64,000 nt of DNA, from the NCBI GenBank assembly GCA_040766525.1, contig JAXGQI010000001.1, positions 45,346 to 109,345 of the forward strand, written 5' to 3'. The position numbers and the translations under genes are program-made. Shown here piece after piece: positions 1,210-58,487 of this stretch. Position 1 is the first letter of the stretch; each line of letters starts with the position of its first letter. The DNA comes from Clostridiales bacterium. GTDB taxonomy: Bacteria > Bacillota > Dehalobacteriia > UBA7702. The notes under the pieces are model-generated. The model saw nothing but the letters and a program-made list of their open reading frames with translations, was not told the origin of the DNA and made no database searches.

Positions 1210-2178
1210 TTATCCCCCTATCTGCGACATTGCCCGCGGTTCCTCCGCCACAATGCCGGTACGAAATTCATGCCTGAGCGGTTTTTTCAAAATCGCATCC
1301 CGCATCACCGCAACGACCGTATCATCAGCAGCACCGCTCCGCAAAAGATCACGCAGGCTCACGCCGTTATCGTGATAGAGACAGAGCTTAAAAAAGCCTT
1401 CACTGGTCAAGCGCACACGGTTACAGGTTGCACAAAAGTTATGGCTCATCGCATCGATAAAACCGATGCTCCCTATAAACGCATCACTCGTATAATAGCG
1501 GGCTGGGCCAAATCCTCTTTGTTGCCCGTCTTCTTCAAGATCCGGATATCCAGCCTTGATCATCTGATATACATCTTCGCCTTTGATGGGCGCAAAAAAC
1601 TGGCCGTACCCGATGGGCATCATTTCAATAAAGCGGACGTCCATGGGATAGGTTTTCGCCAATTCGGCAAGGGCCAGAAGCTGACCGCCGTTATGCCCTT
1701 CCAAAGGCACACAATTCAGTTTCACTTTAAATCCCAGCCGCAAAGATTCCAGTAATCCCTTCCAGGCTTGATCAAATTCGTCCCGTCCGGTGATCCCTTC
1801 ATAGATCTCCGGATCAAGGGCGTCCAAGCTGATATTAATCCCGTCAAGCCCGATTTCTTTTAAGCGCTCCAAATGCTGCTCTAACAATACGCCATTGGTC
1901 GTAAGGGTAACATGCTCAATCCCCGGTATCTTTTTTAAGGAGGCAATCAGATCAACACAACCCCGGCGCACCAAGGGCTCTCCGCCGGTCACTTTGAGAT
2001 GGCGAATGCCAAGCTTTGCCGCGGCTTCCGCAATCCGGACGATCTCTTCATAGCGCAAAATAGCTTCATGCGGGATGTAGGGCGGATCAGATGGCATGCA
2101 ATATTTACAGCGCAAATTGCATCTGTCGGTAACGGAAATGCGCATATATTCGATTTTCCGCTGATAAGAATCTATCAT
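1210..2178 (-). CDS. moaA: GTP 3',8-cyclase MoaA (radical SAM)
   Basis: CNLRCKYCMP radical SAM motif, GGEPL motif, MoaA C-terminal domain; 322 aa intact ORF. Confidence 0.9.
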   Translation of the reverse strand: MIDSYQRKIEYMRISVTDRCNLRCKYCMPSDPPYIPHEAILRYEEIVRIAEAAAKLGIRHLKVTGGEPLVRRGCVDLIASLKKIPGIEHVTLTTNGVLLEQHLERLKEIGLDGINISLDALDPEIYEGITGRDEFDQAWKGLLESLRLGFKVKLNCVPLEGHNGGQLLALAELAKTYPMDVRFIEMMPIGYGQFFAPIKGEDVYQMIKAGYPDLEEDGQQRGFGPARYYTSDAFIGSIGFIDAMSHNFCATCNRVRLTSEGFFKLCLYHDNGVSLRDLLRSGAADDTVVAVMRDAILKKPLRHEFRTGIVAEEPRAMSQIGG

Positions 2179-2191
2179 CGCTATCCCTTCC

Positions 2192-2680
2192 CTATCTTTC
2201 CCCAGGCGCTGCGTTCTCGATCAAGCCGCTTCTTCCCCCGGATTTTCTGCACAAATAGACAGACTCCATCACCATGGTTTTATCAATCGCTTTGCACATA
2301 TCATAAATCGTCAATAAAGCTACGGAAACGCCGGTTAATGCTTCCATCTCGACGCCGGTTTTTCCGATACACCGAACAGTACAGGTCGCTTCCACCGTAA
2401 GCGCTTCCTCAAATAATTCAAATGTGACCTCCGCCTTGGTAAGATTGAGCAAATGGCAAAGGGGAATCAATTCCGCCGTCTTTTTCGTCCCCATAATGCC
2501 TGCAAGCTGGGCTACTGCGAGCACATTGCCTTTTTTTACTCTTCCATCCCGAATCGCCTCAAAACATTCTTTGCTCACGCGAATGCGGCCCTTAGCGATA
2601 GCTTCACGCTCAGTATCCGCCTTGCTTCCCACATCCACCATGATCGCATTGCCGTCTTCATCAAAATGGGTTAATTCCAT
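2192..2680 (-). CDS. moaC: cyclic pyranopterin monophosphate synthase MoaC
   Basis: MoaC family similarity (LTHFDEDGNAIMVDV, IPLCH). The start is placed at MELTHF, which has a GGGGA RBS, not at the longer ORF start. Confidence 0.85.
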   Translation of the reverse strand: MELTHFDEDGNAIMVDVGSKADTEREAIAKGRIRVSKECFEAIRDGRVKKGNVLAVAQLAGIMGTKKTAELIPLCHLLNLTKAEVTFELFEEALTVEATCTVRCIGKTGVEMEALTGVSVALLTIYDMCKAIDKTMVMESVYLCRKSGGRSGLIENAAPGER

Positions 2681-2694
2681 CTTTATATCCCCAT

Positions 2695-3720
2695 TTACCA
2701 ACCCTTGTCGAATCCACATTGCGGGAAGGTACAGGTTGGGCAGGAAAGGCACAATCCCCCATGGCCCATGGCAGCAAGATCCTGCAAAGTAATGGGTTCA
2801 TTGGCCATTACCAAAGGCAAAACCAAATCGAAAACTGTGCGCTTCGCATACATCACACAACCGGGCAACCCTATGATCGGAACTCCCGTTTCCGTATAGG
2901 CCACCATCAGCATCGCCCCCGGGAGCACCGGCGCGCCATAGGAAATGACCTTCGCTCCCGTGTTCTTAATAGCGAGGGGCGTTTTATCATCCGGGTCGAC
3001 GCTCATACCACCGGTACATAAGATAAGCTCCGCCCCTTTATCCAATAATTCATTGATCGCAGCCGTGATCTTTTCATGATTATCATCCATAACGATATGA
3101 CCAATCAATTCCGTATCGTATTCCGCTATTTTTTCCTTGATCACCGGCGTGAAAGTATCTTTAATACGTCCATGATAAACTTCATTACCCGTCGTCACCA
3201 ATCCGACTTTCTTACTGACAAAAGGCTTCAAAGCGAGCAAAGATTCTTCCCCCGCAATGACTTTGGCCAACTGCAATTTTTCTTCCCGAATGGTGAGTGG
3301 AATCACCCGTGTGCCTGCCAGTTTGTCCCCTTTTTGAACAGGGAAATGACTGTGGCGGGTAGCAACCATAATTTCCCCCAGCGCATTGACGGCCTGCAAA
3401 CGATGGACGTCAACCAAAAAAAGGCCGTCGCATTCCGCGATCAGCTCAATCTTTCCTTCTTTCACCGGCGTAGGCCGCATATTCTCCCCGGCGCACATGC
3501 TGTACAAAATCTCCGCCGCTTCATTTTCGTGGAGCATGCCGGGTTCTTTTTCCCAAATATAAAGATGATCTTTCCCTAAGGAAAGTAAAACCGGGATGTC
3601 CTCTTCCGTTACGATATGGCCTTTACGGAAAGCTGCATCCTTCGTGACCCCTTTAACAATCTGCGTAATGTCATGACACAATACATGCCCTACCGCATCT
3701 TCCGTGCGTATCTGCTTCAT
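2695..3720 (-). CDS. MoeA-like molybdopterin-binding protein (MoCF_biosynth domain, Cys-rich C-terminus)
   Basis: CTGGMSVDPDDKTPLA MoCF-binding motif; MoeA N-domain-like region; terminal CLSCPTCTFPQC motif; 341 aa. Confidence 0.7.
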   Translation of the reverse strand: MKQIRTEDAVGHVLCHDITQIVKGVTKDAAFRKGHIVTEEDIPVLLSLGKDHLYIWEKEPGMLHENEAAEILYSMCAGENMRPTPVKEGKIELIAECDGLFLVDVHRLQAVNALGEIMVATRHSHFPVQKGDKLAGTRVIPLTIREEKLQLAKVIAGEESLLALKPFVSKKVGLVTTGNEVYHGRIKDTFTPVIKEKIAEYDTELIGHIVMDDNHEKITAAINELLDKGAELILCTGGMSVDPDDKTPLAIKNTGAKVISYGAPVLPGAMLMVAYTETGVPIIGLPGCVMYAKRTVFDLVLPLVMANEPITLQDLAAMGHGGLCLSCPTCTFPQCGFDKGW

Positions 3721-3810
3721 GAAGTCCCCTCCAATTACTGTGATCTACTGTATTTGCGCCAATCTCCGATAATCGAGATTTTTCCCATTTTTTCTTTTTA
3801 TTCTCGATTA

Positions 3811-3839
3811 AGTATAATTGATAGCTTCGGAAATGTCAA
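3811..3839 (-). promoter_or_regulatory. sigma-70 type promoter of the moeA-like/moaC/moaA/MOSC-mogA operon
   Basis: On the minus strand: TTGACA, 17 nt spacer, TATACT. A leader of about 90 nt follows before the ATG at 3720. Confidence 0.5.
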
Positions 3840-3885
3840 TAATTGTGGTCTCAAAAATATGAATTTGCACTCAATAAATTGGCAA

Positions 3886-3982
3886 AAAAACGGCAATTTC
3901 GCCATCTTTTCCAAAAGCGATCAATGCCAATTTCGGAAAGACAGATATAAAAAAAGCATTATCCATACGGATGATGCTTTAG
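3886..3982 (-). terminator. two tandem intrinsic terminators downstream of the AKR gene
   Basis: Minus-strand hairpins AAAGCATCATCCGTATGGATAATGCTTT plus a T7 run, and GGCGAAATTGCC plus a T7 run. Confidence 0.55.
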
Positions 3983-4031
3983 AATTATGTATCTTAATTA
4001 TTTCCCCTAAACCTTAACTATTTTATGGGTT

Positions 4032-5147
4032 TTAGCGTTCCAATGCCGCAGCGACAGTTTTCAAATGCTCTGTGATGGGAAGGTGCTGCGGACAATGCTC
4101 TTCACACTGGCGGCATTCGGTGCATTGAGAGGCTTTACCGAAGCGCTTTGCCAAATTCTCATAATAAGTGGCCGCAACCAACTTCTGCGTCTTTTCAAAG
4201 CGTTTTAAGTTATTGTAAATAGCGAAATACTCCGGGATCGCGATATTCTCCGGGCAACCATCCACACAATAGCGGCAGCCGGTGCAAGCAATCGCAATGC
4301 TCGAATTGATGATCTCGACAGCTTGTTTGATGATGTTCTCTTCTGTGGGATCGAGGGGCTTGAGATCCTGCATATTGCCCATATTATCCTCAAGTTGGGC
4401 TTGGTTGCTCATCCCGCTGAGGACAACCAGCACATTTTCCTTTGCGGCGGCGAAACGAAGCGCCCAAGAAGCAACGGATAAATCGGGATGATAGGCTTTG
4501 AAGAGCTTTTCGGCTTCAGCAGGGATATCGACGAGAGACCCCCCTTTCAGCGGCTCCATTACGATCACGGGCTTCCCATGTTTCGTTGCGATTTCATAGC
4601 ATTTTTCCGCTTCGATAATCGGATCGTCCCAGTCAATGTAGTTGATCTGCAACTGCACAAACTCCATCTGGGGATGCTTCGTCAAAATCTCGTCCAAAAG
4701 CTCTGCATTATCATGATAGGAAAGGCCGATGTTTTTGATCTTCCCTTCTCTTTTCTTTTGGACGACAAAATCGAAAGCCCCCAGTTCCTCCGATAAGAGA
4801 TAGGTCGGTTTCCCCAATCCGTGCAGCATGTAATAATCGAAAACTTCTACCCCCGTACGCTGGAGCTGTTCTTCAAAGATCTGGGGGATCTGTTCTTTCT
4901 CCCGAATCTGGAACATGGGGAGCTTGTCCGCAACGATATAAGCATCTCGCGGATAGCGTTTAACAACCCCTTCTCTGAAAGCAATTTCACTTGCCCCATA
5001 TGGTAGGGATAGGCGGTATCAAAATAGGTAAAGCCCTTTTCGATAAAATGCGTCCGCCATTTTATTGAATGCTTTTTGATCCACGCTGCCGAAATCCTTC
5101 GCATCCGTCAACGGCAAGCGCATCAAGCCAAAGCCTAACTTTTTCAT
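4032..5147 (-). pseudogene. aldo/keto reductase with a C-terminal Cys-rich ferredoxin-like domain; at least two frameshifts in the N-terminal third
   Basis: The AKR N-terminus MKKLGFGLMRLP is in ORF 5019..5234 and the FTYFDTAYPYH motif is in ORF 4847..5104. The rest is in 4032..4916 (DYYMLH, then two Cys clusters: CTGCRYCVDGCP and CTECRQCEEHCP). Confidence 0.7.
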
Positions 5148-7575: not shown

Positions 7576-7650
7576 TGGAGCTACTGGCCGGATTCGAACC
7601 GGCGACCTGCGCATTACGGTGCGCTGCTCTGCCAGCTGAGCCACAGTAGC
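7576..7650 (-). tRNA. tRNA, probably Thr (CGU), with an unusual 6-nt anticodon loop (75 nt including CCA)
   Basis: The reverse complement folds as a cloverleaf: acceptor GCTACTG/CAGTAGC, D-arm GCTC-AGCTGGCA-GAGC, T-arm GCCGG-TTCGAAT-CCGGC, encoded CCA. The anticodon stem GCGCA/TGCGC encloses only CCGTAA; restoring one T gives CTCGTAA, anticodon CGT. Confidence 0.6.
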
Positions 7651-8625: not shown

Positions 8626-8644
8626 ATCAACATAACATCGTGCT

Positions 8645-8775
8645 GAATATCTATTTTTATAGATAACGGGAGAACCAATCTTTTGGGGTGTATCCGATTT
8701 TATCGGAGGGAATCTTCAATCCCTAACCCGTCAGCTAATCTCGTAAGCATTTGAAGGGGAGTTATTCTCTGATTT
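8645..8775 (+). ncRNA. c-di-AMP riboswitch (ydaO/kimA class) in the leader of the dapB-like gene
   Basis: The 5' element ACGGGAGAACC...TTGGGGTG and the 3' element CCCTAACCCGTCAGCTAATCTCGTAAGCA...GAAGGGGAG match the remembered ydaO consensus (ACGGGGAGCC ... AACCCGxCAGCUAACCUCGUAAGC). Internal hairpins CCGATTTTATCGG and GGGAATCTTCAATCCC are present. Confidence 0.65.
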
Positions 8776-8847: not shown

Positions 8848-9711
8848 ATGAAAATTGCTTTATGCGGTTTGGGAAAGGCCGGTAAAGAAGTGGCGCTGGC
8901 ATTACAAAAAAGAATGGATTTAGAATTGGTCTGTGGTCTTTGTCGCGACAACAGCACTGCCAGCAAAAAAACGATGGGTGAAATTTTCAATCTGCCTGAT
9001 CTTGAGCTGCCCGTCTACGAAATAAAGGATGCAAAACTGGCATTTGCCCTCCATCGCCCCGATGTAGTCATTGATTTCTCATCGAAGGAAGCGACTTTGA
9101 GGTTATTGCCTCTTTTAGTGGATCAGCAGGTATCCATCGTGATATGCACTACCGGTTTTACGCCGGAAGAACTTATGAACCTGCAAAACTATGGTAAAAA
9201 TAAAGGGATCGCCGTGGCGTACACCCCCAATGTTACCATCGGTATCAATGTAATGATGAATCTTGCCGCCATTGTTGCGCAATGTCTGCCCCATTTTGAT
9301 TATCAAATTACTGAAATGCATCATAGCAAAAAGGCAGACCCGGTTTCCGGCACCGCCTATAAAATCGAAGAGGCCTTGCTGAAAAATCTCCCGGAAGACA
9401 AAGAATCGATTCCCATCAATGCCGTTCGCGCCGGGGGTTATATCGGTTACCATGAGGTTTTGTCTGTAGGGCAAAACGAACGAATTACGATCGTGCACGA
9501 ATCCTTTTCTCGACAAGCTTTTGCTGACGGAGCCATTTTAGCCGCCGAGTTCATCCAAGAAAGAGCCGGTTATTTTGAAATGGCTGAAATCGTGCAAAAT
9601 TATCTGAATGACAAACCCTATCATGAGGTGGAAACAGAAGATGCGTCGAAGGTCAAACACATCGAAGAGATCAAGCATCATACCGTCAAAAAAGATTCGG
9701 CAATCAGCTAA
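8848..9711 (+). CDS. dapB: 4-hydroxy-tetrahydrodipicolinate reductase-like protein (DapB family) with a C-terminal extension
   Basis: GLGKAGKEV NAD(P)-binding start and EMHHSKKADPVSGTA catalytic motif; 287 aa; RBS AGGAG. Confidence 0.7.
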   Translation: MKIALCGLGKAGKEVALALQKRMDLELVCGLCRDNSTASKKTMGEIFNLPDLELPVYEIKDAKLAFALHRPDVVIDFSSKEATLRLLPLLVDQQVSIVICTTGFTPEELMNLQNYGKNKGIAVAYTPNVTIGINVMMNLAAIVAQCLPHFDYQITEMHHSKKADPVSGTAYKIEEALLKNLPEDKESIPINAVRAGGYIGYHEVLSVGQNERITIVHESFSRQAFADGAILAAEFIQERAGYFEMAEIVQNYLNDKPYHEVETEDASKVKHIEEIKHHTVKKDSAIS

Positions 9712-14100: not shown

Positions 14101-15049
14101 TCCATAAGGAGTAATATCAAAATAGCGTTCACACCAATATCCGCTTTGGGCTCCCTCTTTTGGCCGGCACGGGCTCCCCCCCATTGATCATAACAATGCG
14201 GTGCCCTTTTTCCCTCGGAAAGGAACGCAAAACAAAACCACAGATCCCCCCATACGAGCGTCTTGGTAAATTCGTTTTCCTCAGCAGATAGGATCGCATT
14301 CCCAACGAACGCAAATAAATCATGGTCCGGGACGATGCCGAAAACCAAATCCGTCATCCGCTTCCCGATAAAAACCGTCTCTTCCAAACCAAACAGTTCA
14401 ACTAAAGCCATTGACCTCAACCACTTCATAATCACATGGAAATTCGGAACAATCCTCAAGAATCCTTAAAAGAGCATATCCTGTTGGCCTTAATTCCCCA
14501 CCCAACCCTACATTCATCTTGATCTACCTCTAAATATGTTTTTGCTTAAAGCTGTTTCCAAAGCATGTCATCTGCAAAAGCATAAAAGACGATGACATCC
14601 ATCGCAGACCGAAAACCACCTGGGTCTATACTGTTTGTCATGAATCCTAGCGCGAAAATGCCCGCTCTATGATCCGCATCGCCGATATCTTTGGCTGCAT
14701 TATTCTTCCTGATGCGATCAAGGGGCCGCATGCTTAGTCGATTATTGTAAGCATATCAACTATTTTGTTTATTATAGCATAGATTTCCTCATCTGCTCAA
14801 CAGAAAATTATAGTTATTCAAAAAATTGTGATGATTATTATTGCAATAAACACATTGAACCGAAAAGGAACCCCAACCGCCGCCGATCCAAACCCTTGGG
14901 CAAGTGTAGAAACCCGAATTTCCCTCGATAATTATGCTAATTGATCGAAAATAACGACTTGGTTTCTGCCTCTCCTGCCACTTGCGAGGAACCCTTCCGA
15001 TAACAGGCTCCTTTCGCCAAAATGGGCGAAGCCCTCGCAAAACAACAAT

Positions 15050-15078
15050 AAAAGAGCTTCGGTTATAAACTGAAGCTC
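15050..15078 (-). terminator. hairpin GAGCTTCGGTTATAAACTGAAGCTC with a T run on the minus strand
   Basis: Near-identical copy of the hairpin at 15228..15262; see the finding on this pair. Confidence 0.4.
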
Positions 15079-15227
15079 CAGATTGTCGACAAAGTCGACA
15101 AGATGAGAGACATAAGACAAAGGCCAAGAGCTAGGAAAAGCAAAGTCCCTGGACGCGTAGCGTATATGGACATACGAAAGCGGTCAGGGGCTTTGATTTG
15201 ACAACGCTATCGGCTTTTGCCTAGTAT

Positions 15228-15262
15228 AAAAGAGCTTCGGTTTATAACCGAAGCTCTTTTTA
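15228..15262 (-). terminator. bidirectional intrinsic terminator downstream of mttB (AAAAGAGCTTCGGTTTATAACCGAAGCTCTTTTT)
   Basis: Perfect 10-bp stem flanked by an A run and a T run, about 80 nt after the mttB stop. Confidence 0.65.
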
Positions 15263-15340
15263 TCGGGCTTTACGCCCAACATATGGGGAAGGTCCGTTAT
15301 AATGTAAAGACGATGCTGCTCTGTCCCTTCCCCAAACCAA

Positions 15341-16808
15341 TTACTTTAAACCGTATTCTTCCTTTGCTTCTTCAATGATGTCTTGGAAACCGGCTTCTAC
15401 TCCGGGAGCCAAAGCGGGAACTTTGTGGCTCGCCAAAATTCTGGCAGCTTCCGCATAGGCTCTTTCCGCCAGATCGGTTTTCCCTTCCAATTCCCAAGTT
15501 TCTCTCATTGTACGGCAGAACAATTTGCTCGTGCTCTGTTCTTTGCGGAACCGTTCAAAGGTATGGGGATGGCTGACCATTTCCCCACCGGGACCCACTT
15601 CTTTGATCAAATCAACAGCCAGATTATCATCGGTGATCTTGATCCCTGCGATAACCCGTTTAATCATCGTATAAATCTCATTATCGATGACCAATTGGGC
15701 AAAGTCGAAGGTAATCCCCAGATCCAACATCCCCGCGCCGTAAATCAAGTTAGCGCCACCCTGGGCAGCTAAAAGAGCGGTCAATGTTTTTTCATGGGCT
15801 GCTTGGCCATCAGGAACTTTGCTGTCTGCCTAACCACCCGCTACGAAACTGGGCAGTTTATAGAATTGGGCCAAACGAGCAACGGAAGCGCTGATCATCC
15901 CCAATTCCGGAGCGCCTACCGGCGCCGTGGTATAACGCATATCCATAATCGTGGTGGAACTTGCATAGATGCAGGCCGCACCCTTCTTCGTCAATTGTGA
16001 AAGCACAATAACGCTAAGAACTTCGGCATTATGGGTAGCCAAGGTCCCCGCCAAGGTGACGGGAGAAGTAGCACCCGCCATCGCCATGGAAATAATATTG
16101 ATTGGAATACCCGCTTCCGCCGCCAACATCACGACGTCGGTGCATTCGGGAATCAGCTTTAATAAACTGGTGGGGCAAACATTAAAGGTAATCAGGGGGC
16201 GGCGCTTTAATTCTTCTTCGCCACCGGCAACCAAAGCAGCCATACGGATGATTTTCGCAGCATTCACGGCTCCATCAGGCCCGATAAAAAAGTGCTTGGT
16301 CGTATTAGGAAAATCGCTTCCGCATTGTGCAGAGCTTGAATCGGTCCGGGAATATCCTGGGAAGCGACAGCACGATAAGTGATATCCAAATTATCCAAAT
16401 AATCGCTTAATATGGCGGCATTTTTAAATCCTGTTTGGTGCTGGGACGATACTCTTCGTTTCCATATCGCGAACGACAACACCTTCACCGAAATTCACAA
16501 AACCGACCCGGTTCTTTTCAACGATATAATCTTTTTCAGGATCTCTTTGCGGCCAATAACTGATGGCGGCGCAGTCTTCACCGCGTCTTCCACAATATAG
16601 GAAGGGATGCGAACAATATGGGTTTTCGGGTCAACGACGCAGCCACCCGCCGCAAATCTTCCCGTGCTTCAACGCTGTCAACCCGAACGCCTACATTATA
16701 CAGAATATCAAGAGACGCCAAATGGATCGTTTCTAACTCATCTTGAGAGTAGCCAACGATACCGAAACTTCCTAAACCGTTAAAAACAGCCTGTGTGTTT
16801 CTACTCAT
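15341..16808 (-). CDS. mttB: trimethylamine:corrinoid methyltransferase MttB with an in-frame amber (UAG) codon at the conserved pyrrolysine position; the N-terminal half has about 4 apparent frameshifts
   Basis: C-terminal 290 aa are one frame. Plus-strand 15830..15832 is CTA, giving TAG on the minus strand, in the context [32 protein letters not shown]. The MttB motifs [32 protein letters not shown] and [19 protein letters not shown] are present. The N-terminus ([23 protein letters not shown]) and the middle pieces (ORFs 16578..16838 and 16264..16488) are in other frames. Confidence 0.75.
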
Positions 16809-16861
16809 ATTCTCCTCCTTTGTACATTTTCTTTGCAATTTTTACTACACGCATACTAATT

Positions 16862-16877
16862 GCAAATCATATGCCAT
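16862..16877 (-). promoter_or_regulatory. sigma-54 (-24/-12) promoter for mttB: TGGCAT-ATGAT-TTGCA
   Basis: The reverse complement of 16862..16877 matches TGGCAC-N5-TTGCW except the last base of the -24 element. It sits about 55 nt upstream of the mttB ATG. The palindrome TGCAATATTGCA and a direct repeat ATATTGCATTAAA x2 at about 16955..17000 are candidate activator sites. Confidence 0.55.
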
Positions 16878-17073: not shown

Positions 17074-18867
17074 TTACGCATTAGAATCATCCGCATCTCC
17101 GCTTGTTGCTTTCAATTTGTTCAAGATACGCACTACGGTGCTTTGATTGACCCCCAATGCTTGCGCCGCTTTATAGGTCGTCCCGAATTTTTCATAGGCG
17201 CCTTTAATCAAGAGATTTTCCAATTCGATCCGCGCTTCCTGCAAGGGAACGATCCCGGTACAGATGATATTCCCGGAAGAACGGGCATCGGTATTCAAAA
17301 CATCCATCAATGTGTCCACGGTGATGACGTCCGCTTCCGTCGTGAGGATCAAGCGCTCAATGATATGCATCAGCTCCCGCACATTACCGGGCCAAGCATA
17401 TTTATAGAGTTCATCCATGACCTCGGGATCAAACCGCTTCTTCTGATTGTACTGCAAATTGTATCGTTTCAAAAACATATTTGCCAAGGGCAAAATGTCT
17501 TCTTTGCGCTCACATAAAGGCATCAATTTCAAAGGGATCACATTTAAGCGGTAATAAAGATCGCCTCTGAATTCTCCCTTTTGCACCATTTCCTGAAGGT
17601 TTCTGTTTGTGGCGGCAATGATCCGCACATCCAAGGGGATTCTCTTCGTATCCCCGACCCTCGTAATGGTACGGTCCTGCAAAAACTCTAAGAGTTTTAC
17701 CTGCAAAGGCAAGGGCATATCGCCGATTTCATCCAAGAAAACGGTACCCATATTGGCCATCTCAATCTTGCCGATCCGGCCGTCTTTATCCGCTCCGGTA
17801 AATGCCCCGGATTTATAACCGAAAAGCTCTGTCTCCATTAAATCCTTGGGGATCAGGCCGCAGTTGATTTTCACAAAAGGCTGCTTATGGCGGTTGCTGC
17901 ATTGATAGATCAAATCGGCGACAACTTCTTTCCCGGTCCCCGATTCCCCTTCGATCAGCACCGTAACATCGGTAGGAGCGATTTTGGTAACAATCTTCTG
18001 GATGCGCTGCATTGCGGCGCTTTCAAACACATATTCTTTTTGATCGGCAACTCTTTGCCGCAGAATTTCCAATTCCCGTTTTTGCAGGTCGATCTCCTGG
18101 ATCATCCCGGCGATCTTTTCCAAAAGCTCATTGATCTCTTTGACGTCTTTGGAGGTGCTGAGGACGGATTTGATCTTGCCGTTCTCATCATAGATCGGCA
18201 TGCCGATGGCCATGATCAGTCGGCCGGAAGAAAGACGAACCGCGCATTCCGCACGCTTCCCGGTACGCAATACTTCCATCGTGATGCTTTGCGAAATGAC
18301 CTTATCCTTCTCCATATCCGCAACATGCCGCCCGATATAATCATTCAACTTGATTTGGCAGATCTGCTCACAACGAGGATTCATATATTGGATGAAGCCG
18401 TATTCGTCGGTAATAAAAATATCATCTTCCATGACGTCGAAAATCTGCTGAAAGAATTCGATCTTCAAATCTTTTTGCCAAAGCTTCCGCCTTGCATTCA
18501 TAACCAATTGGCGAAATTGCCGAAAACGATCAATAATCCCCAGGATGTCGCCCTCTTTATTGGTAATGACCGCAATATCGCTATTATAATCTTCTAATGA
18601 CGGCATACCCGTTTCATGGGATATGGAAATCGTTACAAAATCCACATCACAATTCAAAAGGGCCAGTTTCGTTGATTCCTGCTTCGTTCTAAAAAGGTAT
18701 TCCAACAGGTCAACGCGTCGGAAAACTTTTTTAGCCGGATTCGCTAAAATGATGAACTCCCATTTCGATGAGAGGAGTTCATCAAAAATGATCGCTTTAT
18801 TGCCGGAAAAGATTTTGAAATTTTTAATCAGAACTTCTTCCAGTTCAAAATAATCGCTATTCGTCAT
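17074..18867 (-). CDS. sigma-54-dependent transcriptional activator (PrpR_N-like sensor, PAS, AAA+ sigma-54 interaction domain, Fis-type HTH)
   Basis: GESGTGKEVVA Walker A, ELFGYKSGAFTGA GAFTGA motif, C-terminal HTH (AAQALGVNQSTVVRILNK); 597 aa intact. Confidence 0.85.
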   Translation of the reverse strand: MTNSDYFELEEVLIKNFKIFSGNKAIIFDELLSSKWEFIILANPAKKVFRRVDLLEYLFRTKQESTKLALLNCDVDFVTISISHETGMPSLEDYNSDIAVITNKEGDILGIIDRFRQFRQLVMNARRKLWQKDLKIEFFQQIFDVMEDDIFITDEYGFIQYMNPRCEQICQIKLNDYIGRHVADMEKDKVISQSITMEVLRTGKRAECAVRLSSGRLIMAIGMPIYDENGKIKSVLSTSKDVKEINELLEKIAGMIQEIDLQKRELEILRQRVADQKEYVFESAAMQRIQKIVTKIAPTDVTVLIEGESGTGKEVVADLIYQCSNRHKQPFVKINCGLIPKDLMETELFGYKSGAFTGADKDGRIGKIEMANMGTVFLDEIGDMPLPLQVKLLEFLQDRTITRVGDTKRIPLDVRIIAATNRNLQEMVQKGEFRGDLYYRLNVIPLKLMPLCERKEDILPLANMFLKRYNLQYNQKKRFDPEVMDELYKYAWPGNVRELMHIIERLILTTEADVITVDTLMDVLNTDARSSGNIICTGIVPLQEARIELENLLIKGAYEKFGTTYKAAQALGVNQSTVVRILNKLKATSGDADDSNA

Positions 18868-18971: not shown

Positions 18972-20382
18972 TTATTCTCTATTGAGGGCTTTCTTGTAAG
19001 CTGCATCTACCGCTTTGGCATATTCTTCAGGAAGAGGATCGGTAACATGATTATGATACAAATCCAAAGCTTTTTCCATCGCTCTGTCATGGTAGGATTT
19101 TGGATCCGCATTCCAACCTTCATAGCTATTTCTTTCACAGAGGGTAGGTTTCCAAAGTTCGCTACGCAGGTAACGGATGGTATGCTCATTGCCTAAGAAA
19201 TTGCGTTCTCCGTTGACAACTTCGCGGATTGCTTCCACTGCCATGGTGTCCTTATTGACTTTTTCGCCTCTGACAGCGCGTTTAATAATGGAGGAAATTT
19301 CATCATCCATTACGATGGTACGATAATCAGAAATCAAAGCATTATCAAAAGCACCGGCGGTTCCTAAAATGCTGGCGCCGGTCAAGGCAGGAACGAGGGC
19401 GTTGAACATGCGTTCAAAACCGCTTTGTTCATCGGAAACCTTCGAGGAGCCGGAGAAACCGGTGGGTTCACTGGGAATCCCATAATAGAGCGCCATTTGA
19501 TGGGAACATGCGCCCGCCAAACCCATTTCAGGAGCAGCCCAAAGGCCAACAGCGGTTCTCATATCGATGAAAGTTACCCGAGGAGACATACACAGGGTGA
19601 CCGGGTTTCATCAACTGAGCGACAACAACGCCGGCCAGCATTTCCGCATTGTGCATCACAACGGAACCGATCAAAGTCATGGGGCTGGTAGCACCCATCA
19701 TGCAGCAGGGAATGATCCCCAAAGGCAATCCGGCTTCAACCGTATCAATCAAACCATTGGCGGGGCCTTCAGCATAGTCCAAGGGGCTAATGGGCGATAC
19801 TTGGAGATATGCGGTGGGTTTTGCCAACAAATTATCCATACCGCCAACTGCGGCAGCCAAGACTTCAGGAATATAGCGCATTTCATGATCGGATTCGATG
19901 CAAATGTGCAAAGGTTTGGAAGTATTTTTGACCTGAGCAACAACTTCCGAGGTGACAGCGGCATGTTCAGGAGCGTCTTTGGGGAAGATCGCGGAAACGA
20001 TGTCGATATTTTCCAAACCGTCGCAAACACGGACATGATCTTCCAAGTCTTTATATACGACAGGACGTCTTTCGCCTGTTTCAATATCAAGAATGAAGGG
20101 GCAGCCGATACAAGTTTGCGCATAGACTTCGCCGGAACCTAAATGAACGTCATTTTTGCCGTTTCTGCTGTAAAGGGTGAACTGGGAAGGAGCCGATTTA
20201 ATGGCTTTTTCCACCAATTCTCTGGTGAAATAGACGGTACCGTCTTTGACTTCCAGCCCAACTCTGGCGCAGGTTTCCAAAAATCTCTTGGAAGTCGCCC
20301 GCACACCTATTGTTTCCAAAATTTCCAATGTGGACTCATGGATCGCTTCAACATCTTCTTTGCTTAGATAATTGAACAACAT
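18972..20382 (-). pseudogene. MttB-superfamily methyltransferase without a pyrrolysine codon (MtgB/MtcB/MtpB-like quaternary-amine:corrinoid methyltransferase); one frameshift near 19560
   Basis: MttB-family similarity throughout (LSKEDVEAIHESTLEILETIGV, MGATSPMTLIGSVVMHNAEMLAG). The shift falls between VYVSSG and FIDMRTAVGLW. The Pyl-equivalent region reads YGIPSEPTGFSGSS with no stop. The start is placed at MLFNY, which has an AAGGAG RBS. Confidence 0.7.
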
Positions 20383-20581: not shown

Positions 20582-20597
20582 TGCAAGATTTGTGCCA
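20582..20597 (-). promoter_or_regulatory. sigma-54 promoter TGGCAC-AAATC-TTGCA for the second MttB-family gene
   Basis: Perfect consensus on the minus strand, about 200 nt upstream of the ATG. The palindrome AATGCAA-CT-TTGCATT at about 20686..20703 is a candidate activator site. Confidence 0.65.
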
Positions 20598-44294: not shown

Positions 44295-45343
44295 TCAAAG
44301 GGAAAAAGAACTGCCACTGGAAACAATTTCAAATGCCGTCTTTTTCAAAACACAATCCAAACTGTTTTCCAGCGTTTCCGTTTTATTGGTTATGATTCTT
44401 GAGGGACAACCTCCGGGACAATAGGCATAATACGGACATTGCACGCAGGATTCGCGTTCTTCACGACCGGTCAAGGCGATCTGGCGGATCGGGCCTTCAT
44501 GGATATTGCCCATCGCATATTCCTCCCGGTCAATCAAAGAGCCGCAGGGATAGACCGAACCCTCCGGCAATACCACATAGGATCGCCCACAGGAAGCATA
44601 ACAATAGTTTTTGCTGCAAGAGGGGCAAGAAAGTCTTCTTTTGGCCTCCTCAATCTCACGAATGGAGATCTTGACCCCGGTACTTTCACGCATGAAGCCT
44701 CGCTTCTCTGATGGAGCCGAAATAAGGCGGTTCGTAACGCTTCGGCTCCCGGCGCATGGAGCGAACAAAGACTCCCGGCCCGCTCTCCGGCAAAGCGAAT
44801 CAAATCCAAACCGATCCCTTTCACATTGCCGAGATAGACACTAAAATCCACCAGTTCGGGAAGACGTTCAACATTCTCCGCGGTAACGACGCTGTTAATA
44901 TTGATATTGATCCCGGCCTGGGCTAATTTCCGGATCCCGTTCACAGCCGATTTCGTTCCGCCTCTGAGCATTTCATTCACTTCGGGCGGTCCGTCCAAAC
45001 TCACGCCGACAGCGATCTGCATTCTCTTGATCTTGGCCGCAATCTCTTGGTCGATCAGGGTTCCGTTCGTCTGTAATTGGAACTGAACATCATAACCATG
45101 CCTCCGGATATATTCATCAATGCGGCAAATCAGGGCATAGTTTAGCAGCGGCTCGCCCCCGGCAAATTGGATCTTTAGCGGCGTATCCCCAAAATACTCC
45201 AAGACTTTGACGGCTGTGGGAAAGTCCATATCATGCTGCTGTTTCCTTGTGTCGGCATAACAATATTTACACTTGAGATTGCAGCGACCACTTGTCCATA
45301 AAACGATCAGTATTCTTTCTTTGCTCATAGATTGATTACGCAA
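44295..45343 (-). pseudogene. radical SAM / SPASM-domain enzyme (anSME / AhbD-NirJ / peptide-maturase-like); one frameshift near 44760
   Basis: CNLKCKYC radical SAM motif and GGEPLL motif (ORF 44534..45343); SPASM Cys clusters CPSCSKNYCYASCG, YPCGSL and CVQCPYYAYCPGGCP (ORF 44295..44768). Confidence 0.7.
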
Positions 45344-46373
45344 TAATTTCCTTCACTTTGTCTTCGATGAGGTCCATACTCAACAACGAATCTTCAAAGG
45401 GTCTCCTTCTCATACGGTGGGGCAATACATACGTTGCCGCTTCCTTTAAATCTTCCTTGCTGACGAAATCCTTCATATTATAGGCGGCAATCGTGAGAGC
45501 AGTTTTGATCATCACGATATCCGCCCGGTGCCCATCCACGCCGAAAGACATCGATATTTTGGCAGCGGTTTCCAATAGCTTATCATCAAATACAACTTGG
45601 GGCAAAAGCTCGGTCGCTTCCATGATTATTTTTGCCAGTTTTTCCTGCTCAAGACTGTAAGACTCTTTGAACTCATCGGCATTTTTTTCAAAGGCAAGGC
45701 GCCTTCTGATAACTTCGGCCCGCTGGGAAGTTTCATTTTCCCCAAGGACATCGACGACCAAACCAAAGCGGTCGATCAACTGCGGCCGCAAGTCTCCCTC
45801 TTCGGGGTTCATCGTGCCCACTAAGGTAAATTTGGCGGGATGGGTAAAGGAGATGCCTTCCCTTTCAATAAAGTTGACCCCCATCGCTGCGGAGTCCAAA
45901 AGGATATCCACCACATGATCGTCCAACAAATTGATTTCATCCACATATAGAATATTGCGGTTGGCCTGGGCCAAAATACCGGCCTCAAATTTCTTTTCGC
46001 CTTTTTTGATTGCCTGCTCAATATCGAGGGTACCCACTACCCGATCTTCCGTTGCGCTGATCGGCAAATCCACCACTTTCATCTTCGTTTGCAGGATTTG
46101 GTGGGGCAACCCTCCGGTAATGATCTTATAACAATCGTCACAAGCCTGCTCCGGATCATGGGGATTGCAGGAGAATTTGCAGCCTTCGATCTGATCCCGT
46201 TCCGGCAAGAGATCGGCCAAGGAGCGCACGGCAGTCGAGTTCGCCGTCCCTTTTTCTCCTCGGATCAAAACGCCGCCTAAAGACGGATTGATGATATTCA
46301 GTATCAAAGCAAGCTTCATCCGCTCCTGCCCAACAATCGCAGTGAAGGGATAAATTTTCTTTTTCAAATTCAT
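45336..46373 (-). CDS. chlI: ChlI/BchI-like AAA+ chelatase ATPase subunit with a Walker A Lys to Asn substitution (GEKGTANST)
   Basis: [31 protein letters not shown], sensor/arginine-finger regions conserved; 345 aa. Confidence 0.8.
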
Positions 46374-46401
46374 AATAGGGATCCTTTCTTAAAGTTATAT
46401 T

Positions 46402-47133
46402 TTATTCGGCTTTTTTGCAGAGTTTCACTCCGATATAGAGTAAAATCAAAAAATATCCGATCATAATTAACGGGTGGACCCACATGTTGATGAACAAATC
46501 GCTGTCCCGACGGATCGCAATACTGCTTTGCGTCAAAGGTAATATCCAGATCAGTTCTTTTAAGATCATCGGCATTCTGTCAAGGGGGAAAAAGGTGCCG
46601 CACAAAAAAGACATCGGCGTAATAATAAAATTCTGGAATTTGCTCATATCGGCATGGGATTCAATAATAATCCCGATCATAAAACCCAATGCCGAAAATA
46701 CCAGGCAATTCAAAACGACCATCAAAGACGCATATAAATCAAACTGAATATCCGCTCTGAAAATTAAACAAATCACGATGATTAATGCCGCCGCATACAT
46801 CCCTCTTAGGGCCCCGGCGGTAATTTTACCGATCGCGAAGGAACCCATATTGATCGGCGCCGTCATAAACTCTTCAAAGGTCTTATCATAGGTGCGGGAG
46901 ATATTGATATTATTTGCGATCGTCCCAAAACTTGTGGTCATGGAGCTCATGGCGATAATACCGGGGATCACGAAACTAAGATAACTGGACCCGTTAACGA
47001 CGGTGCTCCCGCCAATCCCCCAGCCAAAAGCAATCAAATAGAGCATCGGCGCGACCAAGAGACCCAAAGTAATCCCCCAAAACCGATTGCTGAATATAAT
47101 CCATTCATACCATAATATCGACAAAACTTTCAT
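46402..47133 (-). CDS. ABC-2 type transporter permease
   Basis: 6-TM ABC-2 family fold; translationally coupled to the ATPase at 47135 (a 1 nt gap between the two genes). Confidence 0.7.
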   Translation of the reverse strand: MKVLSILWYEWIIFSNRFWGITLGLLVAPMLYLIAFGWGIGGSTVVNGSSYLSFVIPGIIAMSSMTTSFGTIANNINISRTYDKTFEEFMTAPINMGSFAIGKITAGALRGMYAAALIIVICLIFRADIQFDLYASLMVVLNCLVFSALGFMIGIIIESHADMSKFQNFIITPMSFLCGTFFPLDRMPMILKELIWILPLTQSSIAIRRDSDLFINMWVHPLIMIGYFLILLYIGVKLCKKAE

Positions 47134-47134
47134 T

Positions 47135-47974
47135 TCAATCTCCTACTCTCTTATTGGTCAGCATAATGAATGTATCTTCCAAGTTACTTGGCCGGATATT
47201 GACGGTGGCATTGATCGTTGCCTCTTTTTCCAAAGCAGATTCTCTATCTTTAAAGAACAAGATCTTCGTTTCACCATCCTCGAAGCTTTCCAAGACAAAA
47301 GACCCGAATTTCTCGACCAAATTTTTCGGCGTATCCAGTTCAACAATTTTCCCCTGATCCATAAAGCCGACGCGGTTACACAATACTTCCGCTTCTTCGA
47401 TATAATGGGTCGTCAGGATTACCGTCATTCCATCCTTATTGAGGCCCTTCATCAGATCCCACAATTTTCTTCTTACGGAAGCATCCAAACCTACGGTCGG
47501 CTCATCCATCAATAATACTTCTGGACGATGCAACAATGCCCGGGCGATCATCAGTTTCCGCTTCATGCCCCCGGAAAAGGTTTTTACCTTGTCATTTCTT
47601 CTTTCGTATAAATCAATATAATGGAGAAGCTCGTCAATCCTCTCGTTCGCCGCCTCCTTTTTCATCCCGAAGAGTTTGGCATGAAGGGCAAGGTTTTGCC
47701 TTGCGGTCATATCCCACTCGAGATTGATATGTTGGGGCACGATACCGATCTTGGATTTGACCTGGGTTTCATTGCGGTCCAAGGGCACGCCCCCAATCAC
47801 GATCGTTCCCGAAGTCGGCTTTGTGAGCGTGCTCAACATCCGCACCATGGTGGTTTTCCCGGCGCCGTTGGGACCCAACAAACCAAAAAACTCGCCTTTC
47901 TCGATCCGCAAGCTCAGATGATTGACTGCAACCGTGGTTTCATATTCTTTTAATAAATCCGTGATTTCAATCAT
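47135..47974 (-). CDS. ABC transporter ATP-binding protein (ABC-2 exporter partner)
   Basis: Walker A GPNGAGKTT, signature FSGGMKRKL, Walker B LLMDEP. Confidence 0.8.
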   Translation of the reverse strand: MIEITDLLKEYETTVAVNHLSLRIEKGEFFGLLGPNGAGKTTMVRMLSTLTKPTSGTIVIGGVPLDRNETQVKSKIGIVPQHINLEWDMTARQNLALHAKLFGMKKEAANERIDELLHYIDLYERRNDKVKTFSGGMKRKLMIARALLHRPEVLLMDEPTVGLDASVRRKLWDLMKGLNKDGMTVILTTHYIEEAEVLCNRVGFMDQGKIVELDTPKNLVEKFGSFVLESFEDGETKILFFKDRESALEKEATINATVNIRPSNLEDTFIMLTNKRVGD

Positions 47975-48000
47975 TTTTCATTCCGCCTCATTCTATTTCC

Positions 48001-49917
48001 TTATAAAGACAATGCTACTGCCGCCACAACGCTCTCCGCACGGAGCTCTTCGATCTGGAAACGGTCCGCATTCATTGCCTTTGCCAGGTCTTCCGCCATT
48101 TTTAATTTGATAAAATTTTGATCCGTATCAATAACGATGGACTTGATTTGTTCCGCTGCGATCTTTTCGGCCGCACCCAATGCGTCGTCAAAAGCATCGA
48201 TCCCTTTTTGGCTATAGGTGGCTCTGCCATCGGTAACCACCACCACAACAGGAAGCATGTCCTTATCTTTGATCATTCCCGCTTTCACAACTTCATACGC
48301 CATATCGAGGCCTGCCGCAAGCGGCGTTCTGCCCCCGGTCGGCAAAATGCTCAGTTTTTTCTCCGCCAGTTCTACGCTCCGTGTAATCCCCAACAAAAGC
48401 TCGGCGCAATCATTGCGGAAAGCAATTAAGCCGACTTTATCCCTTTTTTGATAAGCGTCGTTCAAGAGGGATAAAATAGCGCCCTTTACGGCAATCATCC
48501 GTTTGTTCGCTCCCATAGAGCCGCTGGCGTCAACAACAAAAATAATGGTATTACCGGTCCGTTTCTCTCTCACTTTTACCCGAATATCCGAGCGGTGAAT
48601 CGCCACCGCCATGCCGTTTTTATCCCGGAACATGTGCTTAGGGGCCGCGGCCCGCAAAGTAGCGTCAATCGCGATATCCCGGATCTGATCATTGGCAGGG
48701 TACGCATAGCGAACATACCTTCCCTGCATACTGGAGGTATTCACCAAGCTGCGTTTTCCGCTGCCATGCTGGATCGTCTCGTTTCTTTTTTCCGCTAACC
48801 AACGGGAAACGATAAAGGGTTCTCCCGGATCGTCAACGGTTTCCTCCGCTTCTCCCGCTTGCATTTGCTCGTCAAAATCCTGGTCTTGCGGCGTCGTATC
48901 GGGTTCCTCGCAAAGCATTTCCTCTTCATCCGTCAAAGGATCTTCCGGGACCTCCGGTTCTTCAGGCGGCGTCTGCTCCCGGTTGTCATCGTTTTGATCC
49001 GCCGGCAAATCGGGATCATCATTTTGCGTGGGATCATCCTGCTGGTTGTGCTCCTCTTCCTGCTGCTCTCTCGACCGATGCGGCAAAGCGTATTTTGCGG
49101 CCTCTTTAATGTCGGTAATATTCAATACCGTTCTTTTATCAAGGGCGGCGATGGCTTTCGCCGCCTCGATGATGACGAGCTCCGCCCGATGCCCCGCACA
49201 ATTTGCTTCTTTCGCAATAGAGGAGGCCAACTGCATCGCATTAGGCGTAACGATAATTTCCGCCAGTCCTTCTTGGGCGGCGGTAATTTTTTCCCGCAGT
49301 GCTTTCGTTTCCTCCTGCCACTTTTTAATAAAAAGCAAAGGATCCCGTTCAAAGGCAATCCGCCTTCGGATGATCTCGACGCGTTTCCTGATATCGGTCT
49401 CCCCTTCTACCTGGACATAGAGACCGAAGCGGTCTAAAAATTGCGGGCGCAAACCGCCTTCTTCCGGATTCATGCTCCCGGCCAGAATAAATTTAGCGGG
49501 ATGACTATAGGAAATACCTTCCCTTTCAACGATGTTGACCCCGGATGCTGCCGACTCTAAAAGCGATTTTACAATATGGTCGCTCAAGAGATTCACCTCG
49601 TCCACATAAAGCAGGTTCCCATGAGCTTGATACAGCAATCCCGGCTCAAAGCGTTTTTCGCCGTATTTAACGGCATATTCAAAATCGATATTCCCAATCA
49701 GCCGGTCTTCCGTAATATTTAACGGCAGATCGACCAATGTGATAGCGGGAGCAATAGAACATATCCCTCGAACAAGCGTAGATTTTGCCGTTCCTTTTTC
49801 ACCGCTGATCAAAACACCGCCGATTTTGGGGTTGACGATATTCCAAATCAAAGCATTTTTTATTTCATCTTGCCCCAAAACCGCAGTAAAGGGGAAGACG
49901 GTATTTGGCTTTTGCAT
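48001..49917 (-). CDS. chlD: ChlD/BchD-like chelatase subunit: AAA+ module, acidic/Pro-rich linker, C-terminal von Willebrand A domain
   Basis: GEKGTAKST Walker A; long D/E/P-rich linker; vWA MIDAS (VVDASGSM). Confidence 0.8.
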   Translation of the reverse strand: MQKPNTVFPFTAVLGQDEIKNALIWNIVNPKIGGVLISGEKGTAKSTLVRGICSIAPAITLVDLPLNITEDRLIGNIDFEYAVKYGEKRFEPGLLYQAHGNLLYVDEVNLLSDHIVKSLLESAASGVNIVEREGISYSHPAKFILAGSMNPEEGGLRPQFLDRFGLYVQVEGETDIRKRVEIIRRRIAFERDPLLFIKKWQEETKALREKITAAQEGLAEIIVTPNAMQLASSIAKEANCAGHRAELVIIEAAKAIAALDKRTVLNITDIKEAAKYALPHRSREQQEEEHNQQDDPTQNDDPDLPADQNDDNREQTPPEEPEVPEDPLTDEEEMLCEEPDTTPQDQDFDEQMQAGEAEETVDDPGEPFIVSRWLAEKRNETIQHGSGKRSLVNTSSMQGRYVRYAYPANDQIRDIAIDATLRAAAPKHMFRDKNGMAVAIHRSDIRVKVREKRTGNTIIFVVDASGSMGANKRMIAVKGAILSLLNDAYQKRDKVGLIAFRNDCAELLLGITRSVELAEKKLSILPTGGRTPLAAGLDMAYEVVKAGMIKDKDMLPVVVVVTDGRATYSQKGIDAFDDALGAAEKIAAEQIKSIVIDTDQNFIKLKMAEDLAKAMNADRFQIEELRAESVVAAVALSL

Positions 49918-49925
49918 ATTTCTAC

Positions 49926-52900
49926 TTATCCCAAATCCTCGAGATCTCCTTCCATTTCCATATAAATTTTCTTGAGTTTTTCAACTTTATCTTCTGATGC
50001 ATTCCACATGCCGCGCTGATTCGCTTCAAGCAATCTCTCGGCTACATTGTGCAAGGCCCAGGGATTGACTTCCCGCATCCAATCCGTGTTCTCCTTATCG
50101 AAAGCGTATCTTTCGGCAATAGAGTCATACATCCAATCGTCGATCACATTGGTCGTCGCATCCCAGCCGAAGGCGAAATCTACCATGGCGGAAATCTGTT
50201 TGGCGCCGCGATAGCCGTGCTTCTTTAGGCCCTCGATCCACTTGGGATTATTGACTCTGGCCCGCATAACCCGGGAAGCTTCCTCATGCAGCGTCAAAGT
50301 TTCCACATGATCCGTGTCCGAGGTGCTGGGAACATAGGCCGGTTTTTGTGAGCCGCTGTGGGTCGTAATCGCCGCTACCATACCACCGAAATAATTATAA
50401 AAATCATCGCTGTCCAGCATATCAAATTCTCTGGTTGATTCATTTTTAACGGCGACGCTGACTTTTTTCATCCGCAGCGCAAAGGTTTCCGGAACCTTAT
50501 CTCCATGCACATGCTTCCCATAAACATGGCAACCCCAGGTCGTGTAGACCTTCCCCAAATCGGTTACATCATTCCATTTTTTGCTTTCCACAACATTATT
50601 GACTCCGGCGCCATAAGCTCCCGGCGCGTCGCCAAAGACCCGATACAAGGATTGGGTCGTTGCGGTTTCAAGATCAATACCTTGTTTGACCAGTTCTTCA
50701 ACTTCTTCCGTTACATGCTTCTTAATATAGTTCACATCATCCGTTTCATCCAGAGACGCCACCAAATTCACCGCATCTTCTACTCTCTCGATCAGATTGG
50801 GGAAAGCATCCCGAAATAATCCGGTGATTCTCAGCGTCACATCGATTCTCGGGCGGCCCAATTCCTCCATGGGGATGGCTTCAATTCCGATCACTCGATC
50901 CGTATTCCCTAACCAAACGGGACGAACCCCCAATAAATAAAAGGTCTCCGCGATGTCGTCGCCATAGTTCCGCATTGCTTCCGTAGCATAGACCAGGATG
51001 GATACGCTTTGAGGATAAACGCCGTCATCATGCAAAGACCGTTCAATCAATTGATCCGCCAAAATTTTCCCAATCTCCCAAGAAGAACGGGAGGGCATCG
51101 CGCCGGGATCAACGGAATAAAAATTCCTCCCCGTAGGCAAAATTCCCGCATTGCCTCTTGTGGGCGCGCCGGAAGGCCCCGGCGGAACAAATTTGCCGGA
51201 AACACCGCCGACCAGCCGATCCATTTCGTCCGTCATCCGCTGGATACGCGGTTTGATGAAGGTACAAACGAAGGTTAAACATTCTTTTAAGCGCTTCGTA
51301 CTGTTTTCCCGGTTGATTTGAAAGTCTTGGATGATACCGTCGACGGAATCCGCCGCAAAACCCTTTCCTTCCAGCGCGAGAAAAATATTTTCCGCAACTT
51401 CATCGGCTTCCCTAAGCAAAATCCCATAGGACTTGCCGTCTTGTGTCGCTGTTTCCGGATTGGCCAGCAAAGCTTCAAAATCCAGTCCCAATAAATCGCA
51501 AACGCCTTCTCTTAAAGAAGGAACTTCTCCGTTACGATTTCTGACCAGCATTTTCAGCATATTGCGATAGCGGTCGCCTTCCGGCACCATGCCGAGGATA
51601 TGGAAGCCATCGGCAATATCGCAGGCCTGCACTCTTGTGACCCAAGTATGCATCTTTTCGATACATTCATCGGGATCATTTGCCATCTCCTCATCGGTAA
51701 GACCGATGTCATCGTGCAAATTGATCTTTTTCCCAAGTTCCAATATCTCCTGCTGAACTAGGGGCAGCTTTTTCGGATCCGCAGCCTTGACATGATAATA
51801 CTGCTTCATCAATTCATCCATCTTCGCCAACTCATCGTACACGCCGCTTTCGACCATGGAGGGAATCATATGATCGACCAAAGTCGCATAGGTGCGTCTT
51901 TTCGCCTGGGTACCTTCTCCCGGCGCATTGATGATATAGACATAGAGATGCGGAATCGTTCCGATACAAATATCGCTGAAACAATCCTTGGACAACCCCA
52001 CTTCCTTGCCGGGGAGCCACTCGATTGTTCCATGGGTGCCGACATGAATGATCACATCCGCCTGGAAGACGTCTTCCACCCAACGATACACGCCGATATA
52101 TTGATGGGGACAGGGAATATCCGTGCTATGATACATTTCTTCCGCTTTTTCTTCAAAAGCCCGGGGCGGCTGCAAACCGATAAAAATATTCCCGTTCAAG
52201 ATCCCGGGGACTAAAAGCTGCTGATCCACCGCCATAAAATCCCCCACGGGCTCGTCCCAATATTTCACCAGGTTTTCTTTAATGCGAGGAATAAAAGGAT
52301 CATACCATTGGCGATACTTTGCTTCCGTTACCGTATCGATACTCTTGGCCAGCATATTCTCGGGAGACATCCAGCGCCCGTCATTCGTGAGCCCTTTCGT
52401 GATGGTATCGATAATCTCTTTACCGTCGGCAAAATGATATTGGGTATGAATCCCGGCTGCTTCCATCCTGGTAATCAATTTACAAACCGAAACCGGCGTA
52501 TCAAGACCCGCCGCACCGCCGATATTATCGTTGCGGGGCGGATTGTTATGCAGAATAATGGCAACCTTCTTCTCGCTGTTGTCTTTATGGCGCAATATGG
52601 CCCATTTGATCCCGATCGACACGATGTTTTTAATGCGATCCGCAATGGGAGCGGCATATCTTCTGGTACCCAATTCCGTTTCTTCCAATTCCGTTGTGGC
52701 AAAGGGATACGTAATAACTTGGCCGTCAAATTCCGGTTGGAATACGCTCCAACTCAAGGACAAGCTGTCGATCCCTTTCACCGATATTTCCCATTCTTCA
52801 TACGATTGCATGGTGGTCATCAACTGGAACACCGGTACGCCAAACTGTTCAAAAATACTGTTTTCCTGGGGTTTGGAACCATCTCCGGGGGCGGAAATGA

Positions 52901-53648: not shown

Positions 53649-53691
53649 TCGCTGTCATGATCACTACGAGATTCAACATGTTTTCCTCCTA

Positions 53692-54921: not shown

Positions 54922-54953
54922 CGTTTACATTCCTCCCTGTTTTCCCTAAATAT

Positions 54954-58341: not shown

Positions 58342-58360
58342 TGCTAAGGTTTTTTAAACA

Positions 58361-58399: not shown

Positions 58400-58487
58400 A
58401 ATATTTATTTTGCTTTTGAATTCATATTACGGTATTGCCAAAAAATGCAAAAATAGCCACTACCCTACCCAGGAGAACTATCAAATC

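Follow-up and report, generated by a model that had tools for sequence, protein, structure and literature searches.

An in-frame UAG codon at the pyrrolysine position of a trimethylamine methyltransferase gene from an uncultured Peptococcaceae-like bacterium

Introduction

An mttB gene of an uncultured Peptococcaceae-like Firmicute carries an amber codon two-thirds of the way along its length and several changes of reading frame upstream of it, which raises the question of whether the UAG is a signal to stop or is read as pyrrolysine (Pyl), and whether the gene is intact. Methyl groups removed by archaeal MttB are passed to coenzyme M, and bacteria are expected to pass them to tetrahydrofolate. 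An mttC gene adjacent to mttB is a trait of many operons and not of the MttB enzyme itself. Related Peptococcaceae carry Pyl-type mttB or other Pyl-type methyltransferases together with pylTSBCD (PMC6778437). We analysed the gene within its window, the whole 64-kb stretch of DNA under study, in which positions are counted throughout unless another locus is named.

Results

The gene and the position of its UAG codon

The gene lies on the minus strand at 15341..16808, with an ATG start at 16808..16806 preceded by an AAGGAGG motif at 16820..16814, and ends in a TAA stop at 15343..15341. From about 16306 to 15341 it forms a single open frame of approximately 321 codons, broken solely by the TAG at 15832..15830, whose surrounding peptide sequence agrees with the one first described. 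The original prediction had described the C-terminal 290 residues as one frame with the TAG as its sole interruption; the sole break stands, and the length had been put slightly low. When the five missing bases described below are restored, mttB comprises 490 codons, the same length as in relatives, and Pyl becomes residue 328. The frame-restored protein scores 660.2 bits against TIGR02369, the NCBIfam equivalog for [trimethylamine--corrinoid protein] Co-methyltransferase (family PF06253), which is above the whole-protein cut-off of 525 bits and bears out the initial assignment to the MttB trimethylamine methyltransferases.

The best match among solved structures is MttB from Methanosarcina barkeri (PDB 7xcl and 7xcm; E = 1.7e-110 for 7xcl_A), to which the window protein is homologous over nearly the full length. 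In the structure alignment the window TAG (15830..15832) pairs with the non-standard residue X334 of 7xcl_A, the position being counted from the printed alignment block. In the M. barkeri enzyme, residue 334 is pyrrolysine, Gly110 and Tyr364 are its fully conserved partners and Met249 is the gating residue (PMC9842639; PDB 7XCL/7XCM/7XCN). All three of these partner and gating residues are kept in the window MttB, within the matching segments FG-G, SMAM and IYGAG. The coding segment that follows the UAG, 162 codons plus the TAA stop (15341..15829, minus strand), holds the Tyr364 equivalent and the dimerisation loop (7xcl_A alignment; PMC9842639). The TAG had been placed at the Pyl position on the strength of a motif of the archaeal enzyme, with an alignment proposed as the check; since the codon pairs with X334 and the active-site residues are conserved, that motif was correct. 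The two systems differ in that the M. barkeri gene is archaeal and the window gene bacterial, and in that the window has no adjacent mttC. The glycine betaine methyltransferase MtgB (DSY3156, PDB 2QNE) shares the fold family of the window MttB (E = 1.3e-66) but has Leu at the Pyl position; a second MttB-superfamily gene in the window (20382..18972) falls in this non-Pyl group, whereas mttB does not.

As judged by its sequence, 15341..16808 is a standard pyrrolysine-type mttB of an uncultured Peptococcaceae-like Firmicute. Such genes in Peptococcaceae-like bacteria are already known biology, to which the window gene adds nothing new.

Conservation of the TAG codon among relatives

A scan of relatives, limited to one genome per species, yielded 78 loci, across which 76 MttB-family genes have TAG at the aligned codon. 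The carriers include Desulfosporosinus, Candidatus Formimonas, Dehalobacterium, Anaerovoracaceae, Syntrophomonadaceae, Desulfobacterales, Actinomycetota and Methanomassiliicoccaceae, and the paralogues found in the same 78 loci have sense codons at the Pyl position. This recurrence of TAG at a single codon argues that the window TAG is no chance stop. The closest relatives, on contig JAWDGO010000007.1 from the DCME enrichment metagenome and in Peptococcaceae/Clostridiales MAGs (L004-L011 and L025), are 79-93% identical to the window, and all of them have the TAG; their copies are described as uninterrupted save for this codon, unlike the window mttB. The Pyl-type mttB genes of Desulfosporosinus, Candidatus Formimonas warabiya DCMF and Dehalobacterium (Peptococcaceae sensu lato) likewise have a TAG codon as in the window, and the 327 N-terminal residues of their products share 70-72% identity with P0001, the best protein match (a figure that refers to P0001 and not to the window). 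The DCMF genome carries pylTSBCD and Pyl-containing methyltransferases (PMC6778437).

A protein search returned dozens of products of 327 residues with 67% query cover, homologues that gene calling had ended at this very stop. P0001 is 93% identical to the window MttB over the first 327 residues and lies on a 1.1-Mb contig of the DCME dichloromethane-enrichment metagenome, where the gene order is non-Pyl MttB, sigma-54 activator, MttB-N (327 aa) and MttB-C (146 aa). The assembly that holds the closest relative, GCA_032941855.1, represents an entire metagenome rather than a single genome (PMC11324032), so shared membership of that assembly proves nothing.

A separate group of full-length MttB homologues, P0020 and P0025 among them, has Trp (11 proteins) or Leu (6 proteins) inside the Pyl-type motif VAGG[x]GDSK. 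For P0025 a TGG codon at the Pyl position was confirmed in the DNA, and downstream of it come first a gene for a TAG-type MttB and then one for a B12-binding protein; the observation of a sense-codon and a TAG-type MttB was made at 1598..3100 and 3227..4696 of locus L086. A single mutation separates TGG from TAG, and the same would apply to Leu if encoded by TTG.

Selection on the segment beyond the UAG

Compared with the relative L001, dN/dS was 0.047 in the N-terminal part that contains the deletions (codons 1-170), 0.027 in the middle part (codons 171-327) and 0.034 over 138 codons beyond the TAG, with dS above 1 throughout mttB, a divergence at which the ratio is blind to recent inactivation of the gene. 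On these substitution rates, the part beyond the TAG is under protein-level constraint as strong as that on the rest of mttB. Purifying selection of this strength argues that the segment is translated, and fits read-through by Pyl-tRNA and not a true stop. Stop usage provides weak extra support for Pyl decoding, with TAG ending just one of the 34 confident ORFs in the window (a MoaC-like gene at 2192..2752, minus strand) against 25 that end in TAA and 8 in TGA, a small sample at 45% G+C. Taken together, the conservation of the TAG and the purifying selection after it give good indirect support to the prediction that the source organism decodes UAG as pyrrolysine.

The UAG is also position 1 of a match to the Rfam family PYLIS_3 (RF02510; 15733..15832, minus strand; 92.4 bits against a gathering score of 38). 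As a real RNA element this candidate was rejected. The stretch has a minimum free energy of -19.5 kcal/mol, whereas its shuffles average -27.5 (z = +2.28), so it folds worse than its shuffles, and RNAalifold on 75 distinct homologues found no conserved structure (-0.75 against -1.11 for column shuffles that preserve codon position, with 99 of 200 shuffles equal or better). Given this lack of structural support, the match is attributed to conservation of the coding sequence, and read-through here would need no cis-acting RNA element.

Pyrrolysine machinery and MttC

ARAGORN found no pylT in the 64-kb window, and PylB, PylSc, PylSn and MttC had no tblastn match there, in agreement with the earlier reading of the window as lacking pyl genes. 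The 10-kb flanks of mttB in the nearest relatives (L001-L011 and L025) also contained no pyl gene, pylT or MttC. Across the wider set, ARAGORN was run on 46 loci and placed a tRNA-Pyl with the anticodon CUA within 10 kb in 12 of them, and tblastn located PylB, PylSc or PylSn in about 16 loci; pylT or pylS/pylB is thus present within 10 kb in about one-quarter of related loci. The classical layout is seen in Desulfosporosinus sp. FKB (L018), where mttB and mttC are followed by pylT, pylB and both pylS parts, with a pylC fragment only and pylD not identified. In several such genomes (for example L012, L018 and L022) mttB stands beside mttC and the pyl cassette, whereas the window and its nearest relatives have a solitary mttB preceded by a sigma-54-type promoter. 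We infer that the Pyl cassette and MttC are encoded elsewhere in the source genome.

Two further tRNA candidates were discarded. The 'tRNA-Stop (tta)' reported by ARAGORN in L013 is a false positive that matches no Rfam tRNA model. The unusual tRNA at 7650..7576, considered as a pylT or a frameshift suppressor, has no CUA anticodon, and the addition of one base turns it into a tRNA-Thr.

Frame breaks in the N-terminal half

The reading frame changes five times 5' of 16306. Aligned with seven relatives, the window gene has exactly five single-base deletions, at 16660/16659, 16567/16566, 16459/16458, 16423/16422 and 16310/16309 (16309..16660, minus strand), which correspond to alignment columns 149, 243, 352, 389 and 503, each gapped in the window alone. 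All five lie in or next to short runs (GGGA-AGA, GCCG-CC, GAAA-CG, TTAAA-AAT and GATTTT-CC). Near 16566 an alignment with a single deletion yields ISYWPQ opposite TILLAA in the relatives, and by a hand count of matching bases a reading with three events fits better. The apparent N-terminal frameshifts had been flagged in the original prediction as a reason for caution over assembly quality, and the caution was well placed, as these breaks are one-base deletions and similar breaks recur across the window.

The density of five breaks per 350 bp in mttB is far above the window average. The non-Pyl MttB paralogue has two more one-base gaps relative to L001, near 19597 and 19590, and a codon-usage scan gave about 35-45 same-strand frame switches in the window by hand count, clustered at about 4.9-6.7, 10.5-11.4, 13.4-14.4, 16.3-16.7, 27.4-30.5 and 34.2-35.5 kb. 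When translations were stitched, one Pfam domain spanned the junctions in MogA (~565), in an aldo-keto reductase (~5052 and ~4990) and in CbiZ (~55537). Heavy fragmentation was also observed at 27.4-29.2 kb, in a glycosyltransferase, and at 29.8-30.5 kb, in a DDE transposase. The tRNA at 7576..7650 (minus strand), called 'tRNA-???' by ARAGORN and matching the Rfam tRNA model at 58 bits, has a 6-nt anticodon loop; one added base makes it a normal tRNA-Thr, which would be Thr(CGU) if U33 is the base restored, and the loop defect is probably another single-base deletion in the assembly. The mttB of a related MAG (L011, AnMBR.bin542) was also seen to have a single-base gap, at alignment column 1329; the window's assembly is not alone in having errors of this type. 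It is possible that the clusters reflect failed short-read polishing of families present in several copies, for example MttB, GGDEF/PAS proteins and transposases.

Promoters, activator and paralogue

A sigma-54-type -24/-12 promoter, TGGCATATGATTTGCA, is positioned 5' of mttB (16861..16876, minus strand), and a second, TGGCACAAATCTTGCA, lies 5' of the non-Pyl paralogue (20582..20597, minus strand). They are the only two matches to TGGCAY-N5-TTGCW in the 64 kb, where 0.11 would be expected, and both precede MttB-family genes; the one at mttB is also conserved in L001-L003. The two MttB-family genes flank a sigma-54-dependent activator with PAS, AAA+ and HTH domains (17074..18867, minus strand), which matches Pfam Sigma54_activat at 233.5 bits as well as PAS and HTH_50. 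It is PrdR-like, though it falls below that model's cut-off (388 against 795 bits). The order non-Pyl MttB, sigma-54 activator, Pyl-MttB is common to L001 and L003. From this arrangement, sigma-54 and the adjacent activator are predicted to drive transcription of the MttB-family genes.

The paralogue itself (18972..20382, minus strand) is split by two one-base deletions, so that Pfam MTTB is matched in two ORFs with consecutive profile ranges, and it scores below the TIGR02369 cut-off. It has no TAG, and orthologues in relatives have Ser at the Pyl position. That a non-Pyl MttB paralogue lies 3 kb away under a similar promoter had been anticipated, and the gene does have its promoter type, as well as the activator, in common with the Pyl-type gene.

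Downstream of mttB, a hairpin, AAAAGAGCTTCGGTT-ATAA-ACCGAAGCTCTTTT, followed by T-rich sequence was read directly from the sequence at 15227..15260 (minus strand). It is likely to be the intrinsic terminator of mttB, to judge from its form, although it escaped a simple terminator scan. Two similar hairpin-forming copies of GAGCTTC(G/A)GTT(-/T)ATAA(A/-)CCGAAGCTCTTTTAT, about 170 bp apart, were noted in the region 15040..15270 (minus strand) 3' of mttB. The window differs here from L001, in which a TauE-family gene lies 3' of mttB where the window has the terminator-like hairpin and signalling genes.

Elsewhere in the window, a cobalamin riboswitch (58644..58472) heads a gene cluster (44295..58644, minus strand) that encodes CbiZ, a periplasmic binding protein, CobN (1240 aa), a VWA/ChlD-like protein, an ABC transporter, a ChlI-like AAA+ protein and a radical SAM/SPASM protein. 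The cluster looks like one for salvage or chelation of corrinoids, a function that would bear on a methyltransferase dependent on them. A c-di-AMP riboswitch (8631..8764, plus strand; 94.8 bits) was found 5' of a 287-aa ORF at 8848..9711.

Discussion

We hold with good confidence that the locus encodes a Pyl-dependent MttB whose UAG is read as Pyl, with the cassette and MttC encoded elsewhere and the frame breaks arising from assembly errors. In the mechanism that family knowledge suggests, the UAG at codon 328 would be read by Pyl-tRNA(CUA) in competition with release factor. The Pyl residue is predicted to sit above the TIM barrel, where its imine would bind and activate trimethylamine, and a methyl group would then pass to the Co(I) corrinoid of the partner MttC. 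Both MttC and pylTSBCD would be supplied from elsewhere in the genome.

Two other accounts concern the TAG itself. It could be an ordinary stop in an organism that has no Pyl system, leaving a truncated protein of 327 residues with or without a separate C-terminal product. Such a stop would explain why pyl genes are absent from the window and from the vicinity of the gene in its closest relatives, and it matches the split that gene callers make in all homologues, into products of 327 and 146 residues. It is nonetheless very unlikely, as the post-UAG part, with its dN/dS of 0.034 at dS above 1, shares the frame of the part before it in 76 homologues and contains the catalytic Tyr364 equivalent and the dimerisation loop, and relatives with pylT nearby have the same TAG. 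A base-calling error in a sense codon such as TGG or TTG has a smaller chance still, one close to negligible. The assembly is error-prone, and Trp and Leu variants do occur in more distant full-length homologues, but the errors observed are deletions and not substitutions, and the TAG is present in all of the closest relatives at 79-93% identity.

The remaining alternative accepts the frameshifts as real, making mttB and many other window genes pseudogenes of a decaying genome and the TAG a relic of a Pyl enzyme. Five breaks within 350 bp of mttB, the splitting of many further genes, a slight excess of unique amino-acid changes in the window lineage (16, against 8 in L001) and the presence of the same fragments in the deposited NCBI record (P0130) could all be read in this way. 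Every checkable indel, however, is the loss of one base in the context of a short homopolymer, and neither insertions nor longer deletions were seen; even the broken segment has a dN/dS of about 0.03-0.05, a ratio to be read with its blindness to recent inactivation in mind; a tRNA gene is hit in its anticodon loop; long genes such as those for CobN (1240 aa) and the sigma-54 activator are still open; and a related MAG (L011) has the same kind of single-base gap. Decay is unlikely on this evidence. The version in which a Peptococcaceae-like bacterium is inactivating a Pyl-dependent mttB, many other genes and a tRNA through genuine deletions is similarly improbable; if true, it would offer a snapshot of the loss of trimethylamine and pyrrolysine metabolism during genome decay. 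The restriction to deletions, their homopolymer context, the damaged tRNA and the strong purifying selection favour assembly error. Homopolymer-length errors in the assembly are therefore the most likely source of the N-terminal frame breaks, and the gene itself is probably intact.

The mttB of this uncultured clade would be a stand-alone gene, without linkage to mttC or the pyl cassette and under the putative control of a PrdR-like activator and sigma-54, a reading that we consider more likely than decay. This stand-alone layout with predicted sigma-54 control, common to the closest relatives, is the one modestly unusual trait of the locus.

Automated annotation will miss an MttB that is probably functional, as gene callers divide its gene at the UAG and homopolymer errors in the assembly break it at five further points. 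The gene marks its source organism as a likely pyrrolysine user and trimethylamine consumer, and likely trimethylamine use of this kind bears on methylamine turnover in anaerobic consortia, digesters and guts.
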